Counted from the first letter of the stretch, positions 11,667-22,187 are shown. The stretch is 32,000 bases of DNA from an uncultured archaeon (GCA_964648855.1 CAZYLT010000021.1:1-32000), one strand, 5' to 3'. Program-made: numbers and translations. The notes: generated by a model from the sequence alone, not told the origin.

Positions 11667-11876
11667 GTAATTCACTCTCCGTTTGTAAACAACGTTCCCC
11701 CTTCTTTTCTTCATATATTGCCCACTGTAAAGATAATCTATCTGCTAGTTTTGGGAGGACTGGCCACCCCGAAACATGATCCAGCCTTCCACCCCGGTCT
11801 GCCACCAGAGCCGCCTTTGCAATATCCTTAAATTTCCCCAGCGTTCTGCCGCTCGTGAACTGCGGCCGTAGTCTAG
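11535..11876 (+). repeat. ~340-bp direct repeat, copy 2
   Basis: Homologous to 5776-6113. Confidence 0.95.
11819..11834 (+). promoter_or_regulatory. Candidate archaeal BRE/TATA (GCAATATCCTTAAATT) for the 5' tRNA half and array
   Basis: TTAAAT lies about 30 nt upstream of G1 at 11862. GCAATATCCTTAAA recurs at 12098-12111, with a variant at 6056-6069. Confidence 0.5.
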
Positions 11877-11897
11877 TTTTATGATAGAAGCCTTCCA
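11862..11897 (+). pseudogene. 5' half of a tRNA-Gly(TCC), positions 1-37
   Basis: GCGGCCG TA GTCT AGTTTT ATGAT A GAAGC CTTCCA aligns with the intact tRNA 5' half; homology stops after A37. Confidence 0.85.
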
Positions 11898-12196
11898 CTG
11901 AATTGTCCGTCATAGCGGGGTCTGGGCCCTGACTCAAGCATGACAGAACCCTTCCACTGATACGTCCCTTCTTTCACCTGAAGTTGTCGCAAAGAAGATG
12001 CCACCCTTCCACTAATATGTCGCATTGGAATATCGATTGAGGACTGTTCAATCTATGATCCAGGCCTTCCACCGATATACCCAGAGAGTTCACTCTAGCA
12101 ATATCCTTAAAACAAGTGTTCAGACACCCTTGACTCCAGAGGGACAATCGGGATTTGGGTCGAATCGATATGATCCAACCCTTCCACTGATCGTCC
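11881..12196. repeat. Interspaced repeat array with ~55-60 nt period, consensus ATGAT-N6-CTTCCA-CTGATAYGTCC, hairpin spacers
   Basis: CTTCC cores at 11892, 11951, 12006, 12066, (degenerate ~12129), 12181 and, in register, the tRNA anticodon loop at 12241. Confidence 0.85.
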
Positions 12197-12209
12197 TTTC
12201 TAGACTCCC

Positions 12210-12284
12210 GCGGCCGTTGTCTAGGGGCTAGGATTCCACCCTTCCGAGGTGGTAGCCCGGGTTCGATTCCCGGCGGCCGCACCA
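12210..12284 (+). tRNA. tRNA-Gly(TCC), CCA encoded, no intron
   Basis: Acceptor GCGGCCG/CGGCCGC; anticodon stem CCACC/GGTGG, loop CTTCCGA; T arm CCGGG-TTCGATT-CCCGG; ACCA end. Confidence 0.96.
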
Positions 12285-12301
12285 CAATCCTCTTTCTTCG
12301 G

Positions 12302-12420
12302 ATGAAATTAGTAGGGGAGTGAACCCCGATTTCGGACTTCTGTGTTCTGCCCTTCTCTTGCCCAGTGTCGCCACCAACTCTAGGAGCCACCCTAGAGAAA
12401 GCAAGAGCTTCGGCCACGAT
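12302..12420 (-). ncRNA. Candidate omegaRNA (reRNA) 3' part / right end downstream of tnpB
   Basis: Directly 3' of tnpB; hairpin GGGG-N6-CCCC at 12314-12327; 12302-12380 is conserved collinearly at 22228-22307, with homology ending at ATTTCAT on the minus strand. Confidence 0.55.
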
Positions 12421-18968: not shown

Positions 18969-18977
18969 TGTCCTATA

Positions 18978-19021
18978 CTTCCAAGGCTGTAGCCAAGGTT
19001 CAATTCCCGACGGAAGCACAA
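18978..19021 (+). repeat. Degenerate 3' half of tRNA-Gly(TCC), att-like scar
   Basis: CTTCCAA GGCTG TAGC CAAGG TTCAATT CCCGA CGGAAGC ACAA, collinear with 12241-12284. Confidence 0.85.
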
Positions 19022-19136
19022 CTATTTCAGCCCTAGAATTGAATATTTACAGAAATGGTCCATCTCTAGTTCTAAGCATACATATATTATGAGAAGGTTT
19101 TTCTGGTTTCACCTTCATATTTTGCCTGGTGGGACG

Positions 19137-20177
19137 GTGCGAATACTACATACCTCTGATTTACATTTGACCAACGAAAGGCCGGAAACCATTGACGCCT
19201 TGAAAGAGTTACTAAAAGTGGCTTCTACGAAGGAGGTAGACTTTCTCACTATCAGTGGTGATGTTTTTGAAAATCCGTCAGAAGCAGACAAGCTAAGAAC
19301 GAAACTGAGGAATCTTTTCAAAGAAGTAGACTATAGAATAATTGCAATACCGGGAAACCATGATGGAACTATACTAAGCCAAGATTTTGATTTTGGTTTT
19401 GAGGTGATCAATGAGATCCCCTTTGGTACCATAATTTCGGACGACTTGTCAATTATAGGGATTCCCTATACTGACAGCCCTTCAGATGAGCTACTGCTAA
19501 ATCTTAAGAAAGCACAACAAGACTGCCCTATTCGTATTTTACTTGTTCACTGTACGCTGGATTGGGGATACAGTTCTGAATCCTATGGTGATGAAGATGA
19601 AAAATCCTATTTTCCAGTTAGCCGCGACCAGCTTTCTGCACTGGGCTTTGATTACATTCTTGCAGGACATTTTCATTCAAGAACTGATATAATCAAATTG
19701 AAGGGAGGAGGCACCTTTGTCTACCCCGGCTCTCCAGTGTCACATACCAGAAAGGAGAGCGAAAAACGGCATGCTGTTCTCATTGATACGGAATCAAACT
19801 CCTTGGAATCTATTCCTTTGAATACTAGATATTTCGACCAATTAGTCCTAAAGGTTGCGCCGGGGAAAGAGCAGGAAACAGAATCCGAAATTCGGGAATG
19901 GTATTCTGAACGAAAAGACGATGACTGTGAAATGCACATCATTGTCAGAGGTGCAATAGAAAGGAAAGAAAAGGAATTCGAAGATTCGATTGCTGAGATA
20001 GCTCCTGATACCGAGATTTGGAATGAAACCAAAGATGTGAAGACCGTTTTAAAGCACGACTTGTTCAGACGATTCAAAAAGAAAATAGAGAACAATGAAC
20101 AGATTGCCGATATCGAGGGTATCGAGGAAACGGTAATGGAGGTCATGTCCAATTTAATGGGAGCGGATGAGATATGA
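19137..20177 (+). CDS. Mre11/SbcD-like metallophosphoesterase nuclease (YhaO-like)
   Basis: ILHTSDLH, SGDVFE, PGNHD, LLVH, LAGHFH, YPGSP motifs; GTG start at 19137 preferred over 19089. Confidence 0.92.
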   Translation: MRILHTSDLHLTNERPETIDALKELLKVASTKEVDFLTISGDVFENPSEADKLRTKLRNLFKEVDYRIIAIPGNHDGTILSQDFDFGFEVINEIPFGTIISDDLSIIGIPYTDSPSDELLLNLKKAQQDCPIRILLVHCTLDWGYSSESYGDEDEKSYFPVSRDQLSALGFDYILAGHFHSRTDIIKLKGGGTFVYPGSPVSHTRKESEKRHAVLIDTESNSLESIPLNTRYFDQLVLKVAPGKEQETESEIREWYSERKDDDCEMHIIVRGAIERKEKEFEDSIAEIAPDTEIWNETKDVKTVLKHDLFRRFKKKIENNEQIADIEGIEETVMEVMSNLMGADEI

Positions 20178-22141
20178 CCTTTAAGATTCGCCAAATCGGT
20201 ATCAGTAAATATGGTCCTCTAGAGGACTGTAAAATAGATCTCAATCCGAATTTCCAATGCATTTTTGGGCCTAACGAATCGGGAAAGACACTGATAATCG
20301 ATGCAGTGTTAAAGATGGCTCTGCCCTCCAAACTTCACACATATCTTGCAGAGGATTTGCAGAGAGTTGATGGTAAAGCTCATGGATGGATTACAATTGA
20401 TGTGGATGGGACGAAACACGAAATATCGGATAGTAAAAAAGCAAACGAGATTTTGCCAATAGATCTGGAAAACCTCCGTGACCTCCTCGTTGTGCGTAAC
20501 TCAGACTTGTATAATTTCAATGAGGCAGGATGTCTTAGCAGAGCAACTGACTTGATGATGGGGTTGCGTACTGAAGAGATTGAAAGGATACAAGAGGCTT
20601 TGAAAGAAAGAGGTCAGCTAACTCCCACAAATCTTGATATTTCTACAGCTGGTGGCCCAGAAAGTGCAGGAAATCAAATAAGTCTGGCAAGGGAACTTCG
20701 TTCTGATATCGGGAAATACCTTGCAGAGGTTGGAAACACAGAGGTTTCAGAGGCAGAGTCAAAAATAATACGGTTAACCACTGAACTAGAAGCAAGCAAA
20801 CATATCGAAGCAGAACTGATTGAAGCTAGGAACCTGGCGGAATTCAGGAAACTGAAGGCATCTTTGGAAAGGGGGCGCAATGCCTTCGGACAATTAGTTG
20901 AATCACAGGAGGATGTCGTTCAGGCTGGCATTAGTGAGATATCCACCTATCGTGATTTTGACCAGGATTACAATAGTCTTGAGCAGAAACAGCAAAAAGT
21001 AGGCAGGTGGATTATTCTAAGTCTAACAGGATCTGTTCTATTAGGGATACTCTCCCAATTGCTCAACAGCATTATAGTGGGAGTCACTCAGTCGCTAGTT
21101 ATGCTAGGTATTTTCATTGGTATGCTAGTGTACTGGAGGAGTATCTCCAAGGATTTGTATACAATCAGAGAGTCTAGAAAGTCAATTATCTACATAGCAC
21201 GGGACCTAGGGTCAAATACCGTAGAAGTGGAAGAAGCTATTGAAGCAATCAGAAAGAAAAGCAAAGAAATTGAAGAATGGAAAGACTCTCTAACTGAAAG
21301 CGTTGGTAGCATCAAGTCTCTGTTAGATTTGAAATCAGGTACAAAAGAGGAAGCCTTGGCACTAGCTGAACAAGCTGTTGCTAATCGTAAGCCCGATATC
21401 AACGAAGACATTGACCGGAAATATGATGATAATAAGTACAAAGAAGTCAAGGAATCTATAGAAGAGAAGAGGGAACGAATAGAAAAACTCCGGGAGAATC
21501 TTAGAAATCACCAGAGCTCCTTAGGAAATTTCAAGACAAGATTTGGAAAGCTCCATTTTCAACAATACCTAGGTCGTCCAGCAGATTACAGTCCAGACAG
21601 TATCGACTCTTTGCCAAAAGTCCAAGTCGAATTGAAACATTTCATATCATCAATTGAAGAAACTGCAACTCAATGCGCGATTGCTGTGAAACTCTTTGAT
21701 GAGCTTGCTGAAGAAGAGCAAAACAAAATATCAGAATTACTTTCAAAGAACAGTCGCGCCTCAGAGATTTTTTCCAATATAACCCATAGACGCTACTCGG
21801 AAATAACTTACTTATCAGAAAAAAAGGCAATCCGGGTTAGAAGGCAAGACGGCAGTGAGATGCGAATTTTGAATTTGAGTAAGGGGACGAAGGACCAAAT
21901 GTATCTGTCCGTCCGGCTTGCATTAGCCGAACAGATTCTAAGAGGAAAACCTGGGTTTTTTGTTCTAGATGATCCTTTCATTGCATCTGATTTGGAGCGA
22001 CGAGCAATACAGATTGAGATGTTGAAGAAAATGACTGATGAAGGGTGGCAGGTTCTGTACTTCACGGCTAATGAAAACCTTGCCAACGAACTCAAATCAA
22101 AATTCAAGACAAACTATGTTACTCTCCCCCCTCTGAAGTGA
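20174..22141 (+). CDS. Rad50/SbcC-like SMC ATPase with central hydrophobic hairpin (YhaN-like)
   Basis: Walker A GPNESGKT, coiled coils, LSKG signature, Walker B VLDDPF; ATGA overlap with the upstream gene; two TM-like helices and no CxxC hook. Confidence 0.9.
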   Translation: MTFKIRQIGISKYGPLEDCKIDLNPNFQCIFGPNESGKTLIIDAVLKMALPSKLHTYLAEDLQRVDGKAHGWITIDVDGTKHEISDSKKANEILPIDLENLRDLLVVRNSDLYNFNEAGCLSRATDLMMGLRTEEIERIQEALKERGQLTPTNLDISTAGGPESAGNQISLARELRSDIGKYLAEVGNTEVSEAESKIIRLTTELEASKHIEAELIEARNLAEFRKLKASLERGRNAFGQLVESQEDVVQAGISEISTYRDFDQDYNSLEQKQQKVGRWIILSLTGSVLLGILSQLLNSIIVGVTQSLVMLGIFIGMLVYWRSISKDLYTIRESRKSIIYIARDLGSNTVEVEEAIEAIRKKSKEIEEWKDSLTESVGSIKSLLDLKSGTKEEALALAEQAVANRKPDINEDIDRKYDDNKYKEVKESIEEKRERIEKLRENLRNHQSSLGNFKTRFGKLHFQQYLGRPADYSPDSIDSLPKVQVELKHFISSIEETATQCAIAVKLFDELAEEEQNKISELLSKNSRASEIFSNITHRRYSEITYLSEKKAIRVRRQDGSEMRILNLSKGTKDQMYLSVRLALAEQILRGKPGFFVLDDPFIASDLERRAIQIEMLKKMTDEGWQVLYFTANENLANELKSKFKTNYVTLPPLK

Positions 22142-22187
22142 CCCTTCCAAGGTTCTGACCCGGGTTCAATTCCCGGCGGCCGCACCA
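22141..22187 (+). repeat. Well-preserved 3' half of tRNA-Gly(TCC) of a different allele, att-like scar
   Basis: ACC CTTCCAA GGTTC TGAC CCGGG TTCAATT CCCGG CGGCCGC ACCA. Confidence 0.92.

Follow-up and report, generated by a model that had tools for sequence, protein, structure and literature searches.

In a Thorarchaeota genome of the Asgard group (G000), a DNA insert of 10.25 kb separates anticodon-loop positions 37 and 38 of a tRNA-Gly gene and contains a functional tRNA, a gene for a TnpB-like nuclease (TnpB1), a giant open reading frame (ORF), a further tRNA 3΄ remnant and cargo genes. We analyzed a 32,000-nucleotide stretch (the window) of this metagenome-assembled genome (MAG; 62 contigs, 94.6% complete, 4.75% contamination) and compared it with other genomes, all of which are MAGs. 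By sequence comparison, we show that one resident tRNA gene (unit h1 and 22143–22187), tied to an older omegaRNA remnant, has been interrupted by the 10.25 kb, and that a module consisting of tRNA, TnpB and the giant ORF is common to genera at far higher identity than their genomes. The locus probably, although by no means certainly, reflects serial invasion of tRNA-Gly(UCC) by a tRNA-carrying TnpB/omegaRNA module.

The dead 5΄ half of the tRNA-Gly(UCC) (11862–11897, plus strand; positions 1–37, unit h1) comprises the acceptor strand, the D arm, the anticodon-stem strand GAAGC and the loop to A37. The 3΄ half (22143–22187, plus strand) contains, in order, the anticodon loop, GGTTC, the T arm, the acceptor strand and an encoded CCA. 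These coordinates and contents, first given in a sequence-only reading of the window, agree with ours. When 11862–11897 and 22150–22187 were joined in silico, ARAGORN called a tRNA-Gly(tcc), with the acceptor stem paired at 7/7 and the anticodon stem at 4/5 positions as that reading had claimed; the same 5΄ half joined to a remnant at 18984–19021 gave no tRNA call. We regard the 5΄ half as decayed because its D loop lacks GG. Past 37/38, it runs into non-tRNA sequence, and the resident tRNA was therefore never restored; since the 5΄ half has no rejoined 3΄ part, this layer differs from standard integration. CTTCCA is present at both junctions of the insert. The window has 13 occurrences of CCTTCCA, compared with 5.1 expected, and 0 of 100 shuffles reached 13. 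The TATA-like element previously noticed upstream of the 5΄ half is real: it corresponds to a 15-nt archaeal promoter-like box (11819–11833, plus strand) resembling the box upstream of the plain tRNA-Gly(UCC) genes of relatives. The 342-bp upstream region (block and promoter) has an older counterpart at 5776–6113 (plus strand), which stops at tRNA position 15; this counterpart matched 11535–11876 at 87.7% in a BLAST self-comparison, and the pair brackets 5.4 kb (6114–11534).

Comparison with an intact locus in another genus (G006) connects the two pieces. The block, promoter and 5΄ half matched at 74/122 positions and the omegaRNA part at 49/61, while the more distal upstream sequence (27/65) did not match, nor did the tail (16/54); the 3΄ half aligned with the 3΄ part of the intact gene. 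Because the outer flanks of both halves match the flanks of one intact tRNA-Gly, the earlier claim that they are one former gene split in the anticodon loop is upheld, with the caveat that the left-flank homology is modest (61%) and partly reflects generally conserved promoter and tRNA sequence. On the right, a second omegaRNA remnant (22241–22310, minus strand), assigned to the old module of the split tRNA itself and devoid of its tnpB, is 81% identical to the omegaRNA of a full TnpB2 adjoining the intact tRNA of G006, and synteny with G001 begins at this element. The sequence-only reading had named, as evidence against its proposal, island-free relatives with the left flank directly attached to the allele of the central tRNA copy (CCACC/GGTGG); in the relative with that flank, the allele is CCATG/CATGG instead.

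The intact replacement tRNA-Gly(UCC) (12210–12284, plus strand; stem CCACC/GGTGG, G37) was identified by ARAGORN and by the Rfam tRNA model (57.4 bits). It starts 312 bp beyond the dead 5΄ half, has upstream sequence of its own, and lies tail-to-tail with the TnpB1 gene and its omegaRNA-like region. ARAGORN, run with and without introns, and a DNA search found no second tRNA-Gly(UCC) in this 94.6%-complete genome, which bears out the proposal that the insert supplies a complete tRNA-Gly(UCC), the only one found. The inserted DNA would thus be able to destroy an essential tRNA gene because a spare copy comes along.

The TnpB1 gene (12420–14114, minus strand; 564 aa), absent from the sequence-only reading, encodes a TnpB-like RNA-guided nuclease. 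Its product matched Cas12f1-like_TNB above the Pfam cut-off (PF07282, 2.3e-11) and OrfB_IS605 weakly, NCBIfam guided_TnpB at 7.8e-25 (88 bits, under the 100-bit cut-off of that model) and the PADLOC Cas12f/Cas12u models at 1e-18 to 1e-20 (Cas12f, 8e-20). The translation contains GIDLG, NADRN and two CxxC motifs, and the protein combines the RuvC-like nuclease and zinc-finger (TNB) domains of an OMEGA element. Downstream of tnpB, a tail (12285–12312) and an omegaRNA-like conserved non-coding region together occupy 12285–12419 (minus strand); the latter is conserved in the G000 copies C19, C28 and C29, in eight solo copies of this genome and in relatives, and matched no Rfam family. The left-end-like region (14109–14217, minus strand) has an 81-nt hairpin-rich segment (14203–14123) between two copies of a 14-nt direct repeat; C28 is laid out likewise, with a 15-nt repeat. 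The right-end (RE) terminus of C28 is contiguous with its omegaRNA and abuts a 17-nt T-arm/acceptor fragment lacking an intact counterpart. Other RE termini abut tRNA pieces at L026, L035, L038 and L039, and a canonical copy, L033, lies at a distance of 6 nt from a plain tRNA-Gly. TnpB elements are multi-copy in the family (44/61 genomes). Divergent from tnpB, a 1538-aa ORF (14352–18968, plus strand) is a conserved module partner, and a 43% identical ORF occupies the same place in G047; it matched nothing in Pfam, NCBIfam, PADLOC or PDB, and an atlas search was empty.

We also searched for an insertion enzyme. Y1 TnpA (PF01797) had no match in G000 and was found in two of five sampled relatives, away from these loci. 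Neither tyrosine nor serine recombinases (PF00589, PF00239) were matched in G000, no window ORF tested gave an integrase-like Pfam match, and none of the integrase matches listed for G047 and G003 lies on a contig with these loci. An integrase-type island is thus not supported as the agent: no integrase was found in G000, and the tRNA is physically coupled to a TnpB/omegaRNA element.

From the 5΄ half up to the intact gene, we found repeated units that the sequence-only reading had overlooked. Five 28-nt units start at 11881, 11940, 11995, 12055 and 12170. Within the array (11898–12209, plus strand), h2–h5 (11940–11956, 11995–12011, 12055–12071 and 12170–12186) are anticodon-arm blocks of 17 nt, and directly after each comes a motif resembling the right-end terminus of the TnpB family; a second promoter box (12098–12112) and a 13-nt linker (12197–12209) are also present. 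A further unit, u0 (11775–11802, plus strand), consists of such a block and the junction sequence upstream of the promoter, and is common to the G006 and G047 loci. On the TnpB strand, the unit motif matches the RE terminus of C28 and the consensus of canonical RE ends, the boundaries of these termini being inferred from few copies. The units are 68–82% alike over 28 nt and vary mainly in the 5-nt stem strand; among 86 family genomes, 15 show the pattern, and control hits were near 0. tRNA positions 1–20 are recognizable in h1 only (z 6.5), and over 45 units from seven genomes and one metagenome contig the corresponding signal equals that of random controls (mean z −0.12). With a single full 5΄ half among the units, strict whole-gene nesting fails to explain the array.

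A repeat search detected three copies of a 47-nt tRNA 3΄ part: 12238–12284 in the intact gene, 18975–19021 (74%) and 22141–22187 (87%). The copy at 18975–19021 (plus strand) is a decayed loop and 3΄ remnant of an earlier tRNA-Gly, with the stem strand GGCTG, and its counterpart in G047 is well preserved. This second remnant implies at least two layers, and each of the two 3΄ remnants adjoins an omegaRNA or omegaRNA remnant. The nested halves proposed earlier are therefore retained as regards the two 3΄ remnants and the layering, but only h1 among the upstream units is a true 5΄ half. Simple one-to-one nesting was not borne out, as the counts and order of units do not fit those of the 3΄ remnants.

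The closest TnpB relatives (63–88% identical), in G047, G052, G012 and G018, are each arranged tail-to-tail with a tRNA-Gly(UCC) that has four or five upstream units, and the tRNA–TnpB–giant-ORF module was found in at least five genera. TnpB1 is 88–91% identical between genera, compared with 63–68% for two housekeeping proteins, a peptidase and MgtE, encoded on other contigs. G047 contains the same 6.7-kb module, with a clean 3΄ half at its end followed by another omegaRNA, and one metagenome contig has the same layout. In G006, a TnpB1–giant-ORF module lies 2 kb from the tRNA, and its homology begins at 12317; the TnpB insertion sequence (IS) proper therefore appears to end short of the tRNA, which, judging from this alignment, may be a flank captured in a composite. 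Other observations weigh against serial invasion: the innermost unit of G047 does not pair with its 3΄ half, G052 has only a short T-arm/acceptor fragment ~9.8 kb downstream, no 3΄ half lies within 20 kb in G012, no transposase or recombinase is assigned, and CTTCCA stands at both junctions.

If serial invasion took place, the module would be built around the TnpB/omegaRNA element, with a complete tRNA-Gly(UCC) fused in opposite orientation to that end of the omegaRNA which lies nearest the guide. Normally, the guide of an omegaRNA is read from the sequence abutting the RE terminus. Each 5΄-side junction would be an RE terminus of the TnpB family abutting antisense tRNA sequence at the place where the guide is read, so that the 17-nt blocks would be guide- or target-length pieces, kept beside successive RE termini. 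Entry into the anticodon loop could have proceeded by an IS200/IS605-like reaction, or by homing through TnpB cleavage and recombination. Loss of the single-copy tRNA would be tolerated and the element retained because it supplies a replacement.

The same units might instead form a working multi-guide (proto-CRISPR) array against differing anticodon-stem alleles of tRNA-Gly(UCC), each RE terminus and 17-nt block being processed into a TnpB guide and the split tRNA being a product. We consider this unlikely, even though the units follow the omegaRNA on the strand that encodes it and TnpB, the block is as long as a guide, abuts the RE-terminus motif and varies mainly in the stem strand, and arrays of four or five units occur in five genera. 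By eye, the blocks of G000 and G047 look more conserved than the spacers, and the exact block of the genome's own tRNA is never in the array (in G000, h3 and the genome's tRNA have the same pentamer but are unlike at position 37 and at two further positions). However, the repeats are short and only 68–82% alike; compared with a type V CRISPR array, which has near-identical repeats of ≥20 nt and unique spacers, what varies here is a 5-nt stretch of a single target. An antisense tRNA separates the units from the omegaRNA scaffold, 41 spacers showed no significant conserved hairpin (mean z −0.14), and PADLOC found no Cas1/Cas2-like adaptation genes among the six ORFs scanned. Passive junction scars carried with the element would leave the same pattern. 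Stacked integrase-type islands, each bringing a tRNA 3΄ part that restores the gene and leaving a 3΄ remnant on the right, with the 5΄ half and units due to later duplication of the promoter-proximal region and TnpB a passenger IS, seem to us distinctly improbable. The two direct-orientation remnants, which lie downstream of the intact gene at distances of 6.7 and 9.9 kb, do form the classical pattern, the 342-bp repeat indicates that the region duplicates, some relatives possess tyrosine integrases, and L033 shows that a member of the TnpB family can be a simple IS adjoining a plain tRNA-Gly. Set against this are the integrase searches described above, and a 5΄ half that stops exactly at loop position 37 and is followed, as in the other units, by an RE-terminus-like motif. 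An omegaRNA or its remnant follows every 3΄ remnant, and TnpB is thus no random passenger; every intact gene has a fully paired anticodon stem despite allele differences between loci (G047 and G052 representing one allele), which argues that the whole tRNA travels as one.

That the halves are transcribed apart and joined as RNA, as in a trans-spliced tRNA, is very improbable. The halves part at 37/38, where introns canonically lie, a promoter of its own precedes the 5΄ half and many G000 tRNAs have introns, but the RNAduplex energy of the 5΄-half trailer and 3΄-half leader (−18.4 kcal/mol) was that expected by chance (−16.5 ± 3.1 in 500 shuffles, z −0.6). The lost D-loop GG, the anticodon-stem mismatch, the clear decay of the 18975 remnant and the intact gene with the same anticodon are also contrary to it. 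We attach equally little credence to an assembly or binning artefact in which the contig is chimeric for several tRNA-Gly loci. Although this MAG is fragmented and partly contaminated and repeats are hard to assemble, the architecture recurs in independent assemblies (one metagenome contig and at least five other genomes), synteny with a same-genus genome extends rightwards from 22251, and the repeated pieces differ mutually, so that collapse or mis-joining is not easy.

The preferred reading, serial invasion by a TnpB module, can be set beside known systems. IS200/IS605 elements such as ISDra2, which are retained through TnpB by 'peel, paste, cut and copy', likewise have RuvC and zinc-finger motifs in TnpB, multiple copies and a hairpin-rich left end; the omegaRNA-like conserved region around the tnpB 3΄ end and the right-end-like termini abutting the would-be guide sequence also resemble theirs. 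They insert 3΄ of a short TAM with no target duplication, and the guide corresponds to the right-end flank. Unlike them, G000 gave no Y1 TnpA match and has the 1538-aa ORF in the place expected for tnpA; an entire tRNA gene separates the omegaRNA scaffold from a second RE terminus, an essential tRNA gene contains the target site, RE termini and 17-nt blocks form an array, and CTTCCA is present at both junctions, unlike the textbook signature. With tyrosine-integrase elements (bacterial genomic islands; archaeal SSV-type and pNOB8-type), the locus shares a tRNA target, a crossover in the anticodon loop, tandem accretion at one tRNA and borders marked by directly repeated tRNA 3΄ parts, here the 47-nt family of three copies. 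Those elements encode an integrase and restore the gene with a 3΄ part only, whereas here the 5΄ half stays dead, the insert brings a complete tRNA and G000 gave no integrase match. Archaeal split and tri-split tRNAs (Nanoarchaeum equitans; Caldivirga maquilingensis tRNA-Gly) also have tRNA-Gly pieces apart, broken at 37/38 and within the D-arm region; here, in contrast, leader and trailer lack the complementarity that would form a bulge-helix-bulge for joining as RNA, the pieces have decayed and the genome retains a whole gene. In type V-K CASTs (Cas12k), according to a preprint (bioRxiv 10.1101/2021.02.06.429022), site-specific insertion beside a tRNA is associated with a TnpB-derived RNA-guided protein and a guide matching that tRNA gene, a similar pairing of a TnpB-type protein with a tRNA-gene target. 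However, CASTs are bacterial, insert downstream of an intact tRNA, and employ Tn7-like TnsB/TnsC/TniQ and a nuclease-dead Cas12k, genes that are absent here. Homing endonuclease genes, such as T4 SegB at tRNA genes, and target-specific transposons of small-RNA genes, such as the eukaryotic Dada elements, are reviewed in PMC13565253, a source that does not describe a replacement gene of this kind. Both are, as here, selfish elements that depend on a conserved small-RNA gene, a target that is safe or renews itself, but they are protein-guided, not RNA-guided.

The cargo between the two 3΄ remnants (19089–22141, plus strand) comprises, by Pfam, a metallophosphoesterase (19089–20177) and an SMC/AAA_15-type ATPase (20174–22141), with an AriA-like PADLOC match (1.5e-14). 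The GC content of the module region is 52–56%, compared with ~42% in the flanks.

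The tRNA-Gly(UCC) 5' half (11862–11897) and 3' half (22144–22187) proposed by the sequence-only reading were both found, and their in silico join (11862–11897 to 22150–22187) was called by ARAGORN as tRNA-Gly(tcc); the same 5' half joined to the remnant at 18984–19021 gave no tRNA call. Between the halves lies an intact tRNA-Gly(tcc) gene (12210–12284), which was the sole ARAGORN tRNA call in the window and scored 57.4 bits in Rfam, the Rfam scan of the window returning no family beside tRNA. That this central copy would be the only tRNA-Gly(UCC) of the genome was also borne out, as no other was found in the 3.1-Mb, 94.6%-complete assembly. 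The tRNA 3' part was detected three times in the window by a repeat search (12238–12284; 18975–19021 at 74%; 22141–22187 at 87%), and the heptamer CCTTCCA occurred 13 times against 5.1 expected, with none of 100 shuffled sequences reaching this number. Anticodon stems of intact tRNA-Gly(UCC) genes were locus-specific yet fully paired, two of the relatives (G047 and G052) sharing one allele.

We compared these pieces with a genome of another genus (G006), in which an intact tRNA-Gly(UCC) lies between an upstream block with a promoter and a tail followed by an omegaRNA, the conserved non-coding region downstream of tnpB, and a full-length TnpB (TnpB2). In the window, the 3' half at 22143–22187 is likewise followed by a 63-nt tail and an omegaRNA-like remnant (22241–22310) that has no tnpB. 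The G006 locus aligned with the left piece between the block at 11775 and loop position 37 (74/122), a modest match that consists partly of generally conserved promoter and tRNA sequence and whose specific shared feature is the block with its junction sequence. The same locus aligned with the right piece over the 3' half and the omegaRNA remnant (49/61 in the omegaRNA part), and the farther upstream DNA (27/65) and the tail (16/54) did not align. Because the intact locus aligns with both pieces, these comparisons show that the 5' half and the 22143 half were parts of a single tRNA and omegaRNA module, parted by 10.25 kb inserted at positions 37/38. The resident gene is split at 37/38, the insert holds a complete replacement tRNA, and each tRNA 3' part is physically linked to an omegaRNA. 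Since the resident 5' half was rejoined to no 3' part, this layer does not represent standard gene-restoring integration, as had been claimed from the layout.

The insert encodes, on the minus strand, a TnpB/Cas12f-like RNA-guided nuclease of 564 aa (TnpB1; 12420–14114), identified by profile matches, whose translation shows GIDLG, NADRN and CxxC motifs. The 3' end of tnpB faces the 3' end of the intact tRNA with 135 nt between them; sequence inside these 135 nt is kept downstream of other tnpB copies and in eight solo remnants of the same genome, and the gap is where the omegaRNA would be expected to lie. Divergent from tnpB is a giant ORF of 1538 aa (14352–18968) without detectable family, ending 7 nt before the decayed 3' remnant. 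It gave no signal in Pfam, NCBIfam, PADLOC, PDB or Atlas, so that nothing in these five sources supports it as a recombinase; its sole match was a weak one to HSDR_N_2 (PD-(D/E)xK; E 0.096, aa 374–420). The giant ORF stands where tnpA would be and is divergent from the tnpB of this clade in all three genomes compared (G000, which carries the window, G047 and G006); it is conserved at the DNA level over its first ~250 aa, and over their full length the G000 and G047 proteins share only 43% identity. Farther right, overlapping genes for a metallophosphoesterase and an SMC/AAA_15-type ATPase (19089–22141; PADLOC AriA-like 1.5e-14, mad3, PtuA-like N-terminus) are likely defence or SbcCD-like cargo between two 3' remnants. 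The GC content was 52–56% at 12001–16000 and ~42% in the surroundings.

Known recombinases were rejected as the agent of insertion: a search of the whole genome found no tyrosine integrase (phage integrase), no serine recombinase (resolvase) and no Y1 TnpA. Upstream of tnpB, both in the window (14109–14217) and on contig C28 of the same genome (8000–8115; locus L055, 960–1115), we observed a hairpin-rich segment of 81–85 nt, in which a palindrome is followed by GAGTGAAC, with GTCAG at the end. Its flanks are perfect direct repeats of 14–15 nt with a promoter-like TTAAAT box, and the repeat sequence differs between the copies.

Five 28-nt units, each a 17-nt anticodon-arm block with a following motif, were found by the repeat search at 11881, 11940, 11995, 12055 and 12170. 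In relatives, tRNA-Gly(UCC) natively carries the TATGAT of these units in its D arm, and thus each unit starts as tRNA positions ~21–37. To decide whether all units are complete 5' halves that have decayed, we aligned the 24 nt upstream of each block semi-globally with tRNA positions 1–20. These positions were recognizable only upstream of the block inside the 5' half at 11862–11897 (z 6.5), and 45 units had a mean z of –0.12, equal to random controls; the units are therefore 17-nt blocks and not halves. The nested arrangement suggested by the sequence-only reading holds only in part. Stem pairing with the 22143 half (GAACC, 5/5, for the block at 11940–11956; GAAGC, 4/5, for the 5' half itself) and with the 18975 remnant (4/5 each for the blocks at 12055–12071 and 12170–12186) is compatible with nesting without proving it, but for the array a simple nesting of whole genes is rejected, and the nesting order is broken in G047. 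Spacer hairpins closing at the ATGAT box were likewise rejected as a general property, the 41 spacers examined in 7 genomes having a mean z of –0.14 relative to shuffled sequences. A 17-nt target-site duplication was also unsupported: the left and right junction blocks were alike, by eye, at 11–13 of 17 positions, though the remainder of the 22143 half is well preserved.

On the TnpB strand, the 10–11 nt after each block end in (T/C)AG immediately before the antisense loop sequence, and this motif resembles the right-end terminus of the TnpB family. The terminus on C28, which is contiguous with an omegaRNA, differs from the motif of units in genus g3 at 1 of 10 positions, and canonical copies at 12 loci have related end sequences. 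From these resemblances we infer that the blocks are guide- or target-length sequences kept beside successive right-end termini, either as passive scars or as guides in use. A further copy of the leftmost block and its junction sequence (11775–11802) was observed at 1855–1882 (25–28 nt, 96–100%), just downstream of a prolyl oligopeptidase gene and with no tRNA near.

Right-end termini of this clade also meet other tRNA sequences. That on C28 abuts a 17-nt piece of antisense T arm and acceptor, for which G000 has no intact counterpart; at three loci (L035, L038 and L039) termini abut 12–13 nt matching the antisense 5' end of the G000 tRNA-Asp, at L026 the terminus abuts a sense tRNA 3' part, and at L033 a plain tRNA-Gly(UCC) is followed, after 6 nt, by a canonical copy. 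The clade thus appears to sit habitually at or in tRNA genes. The eight solo copies, each a tnpB C-terminal fragment with an omegaRNA (G000 contigs C2, C6, C8, C10, C11, C34, with two, and C45), all have an identical 18-nt terminus, in most followed by CTAG, and look like a non-autonomous derivative family. In g3, modules of two units and a promoter are dispersed over several loci. In L050 (G003:C49), L051 (G003:C21), and L052 and L053 (G044), the two units are 50 nt apart and followed by a promoter box; such modules occur at no fewer than five places spread over several kb, not all of which have a tRNA nearby, and some of them have the right-end-type motif joined within the promoter box, behind CCTTA, and not to the anticodon loop.

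The closest TnpB relatives (63–88% identical) are tail-to-tail with tRNA-Gly(UCC) in four genomes (G047, G052, G012 and G018), and in 4/4 of these, 4–5 units and a promoter box lie upstream of the tRNA. G047 carries the same 6.7-kb tRNA-TnpB-giant-ORF module (giant ORF, 43%), which ends in a well-kept loop and 3' half followed by another omegaRNA, and a metagenome contig shows the same layout with a truncated tnpB. TnpB1 is 88–91% identical between G000 and genomes of genus g6, compared with 63–68% for prolyl oligopeptidase and MgtE on other contigs. The same-genus genome G001 retains two units, the promoter, the tRNA and a truncated omegaRNA, and its synteny with the window begins only at 22251 and extends to the right. 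The unit pattern was present in 15 of 86 family genomes, with almost no control matches, and plain tRNA-Gly loci free of units were found in G008 and G004. Given this cross-genus identity, recurrence and the unit-free loci, the module is horizontally mobile, or at least exchanged, and takes the complete tRNA along. A metagenome search with a 24-mer across the leader and tRNA start, directed at the pre-insertion allele, gave 0 matches, and one with a 17-mer of the unit gave at least 120, mostly by chance, with only two genuine loci. In G006, the TnpB1-giant-ORF module lies 2 kb from the tRNA and its homology to G000 starts at 12317, so the TnpB insertion sequence proper seems to stop short of the tail and the tRNA. 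On this view, the unit with the tRNA would be composite, and a second right-end terminus, located 23 nt upstream of that gene, would form its boundary.

Mobile elements that land in tRNA genes are expected to repair their target, and integrase-type islands likewise leave 3' direct repeats; here, however, there is no integrase and the gene was not restored from the resident 5' part. TnpB/omegaRNA elements share the protein and the non-coding region, but TnpA is missing here and the junction signature is atypical. Expression as a split tRNA by trans-splicing of the halves was rejected on a negative complementarity test (trailer versus leader), and CRISPR fails on repeat identity and adaptation genes. 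The tRNA homing of Cas12k transposons is the nearest functional analogue. Our literature search found no account of a tRNA gene interrupted by a TnpB element that brings the replacement. Insertion might proceed through an IS200/IS605-like reaction, or through TnpB cleavage followed by recombination with short tRNA arms, and the element may be retained because it is the source of the sole tRNA-Gly(UCC). To leave the resident gene broken and bring a complete substitute would be another strategy, by which the element becomes indispensable; its own tRNA is then the next landing site, which would explain the layered scars.

TnpB is ancestral to Cas12 and related to eukaryotic Fanzor, and its coupling to tRNA-Gly in Asgard archaea points to a possible use of RNA-guided nucleases for homing into tRNA genes. 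One may speculate that the 17-nt block length mirrors a TnpB guide or cut distance, and that the pentamer diversity mirrors escape from targeting. A bolder and rather improbable reading is that a Fanzor-like Asgard TnpB acts as an RNA-guided gene drive whose target is an essential gene: omegaRNA guides kept in the array would cut foreign or resident tRNA-Gly(UCC) alleles, repair would copy the element in, and its own guide-resistant tRNA would make the cell dependent. If so, the array would represent a natural stage between one omegaRNA guide and a CRISPR array, and the ensuing arms race would show as fast turnover of the anticodon-stem pentamer. The recurring arrays of right-end termini and guide-length blocks offer a concrete, testable candidate route from a single omegaRNA guide to a repeat-spacer array. 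For annotators, this is a warning that tRNA 'halves' or short repeat arrays close to TnpB genes in metagenome-assembled genomes of Asgard archaea may be element junctions and not split tRNAs or CRISPRs.

A second breakpoint class lies in the D arm. Positions 6099–6113 correspond to tRNA nt 1–15, and a 342-bp direct repeat (87.7%; 5776–6113 and 11535–11876), both copies of which end at tRNA position 15, brackets 5.4 kb with genes for a nucleotidyltransferase (6409–7164), a NosD/beta-helix protein (7538–9124) and a 589-aa ORF without family (9470–11239). The repeat pair looks like the trace of another type of insertion, with a D-arm breakpoint; in G047, as an analogous case, tRNA nt 1–22 and their continuation are 6.3 kb apart. 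Among the tRNA genes of G000, 17 were detected without introns and 42 with introns, so that more than half need intron-aware detection, and no tRNA-Gly(CCC) was found. Several ARAGORN calls contain very long introns (Leu-gag, 2255 nt; Ser-gga, 722 nt; Pyl, 403 nt); these calls may be false or may mark more interrupted tRNA genes. To the right of the split tRNA, the region 23745–24391 holds a VapC-type PIN toxin gene (24002–24391) and a small upstream partner ORF, and a degenerate second copy of the VapC 3' end lies at ~23086–23350 (BLAST against G001).
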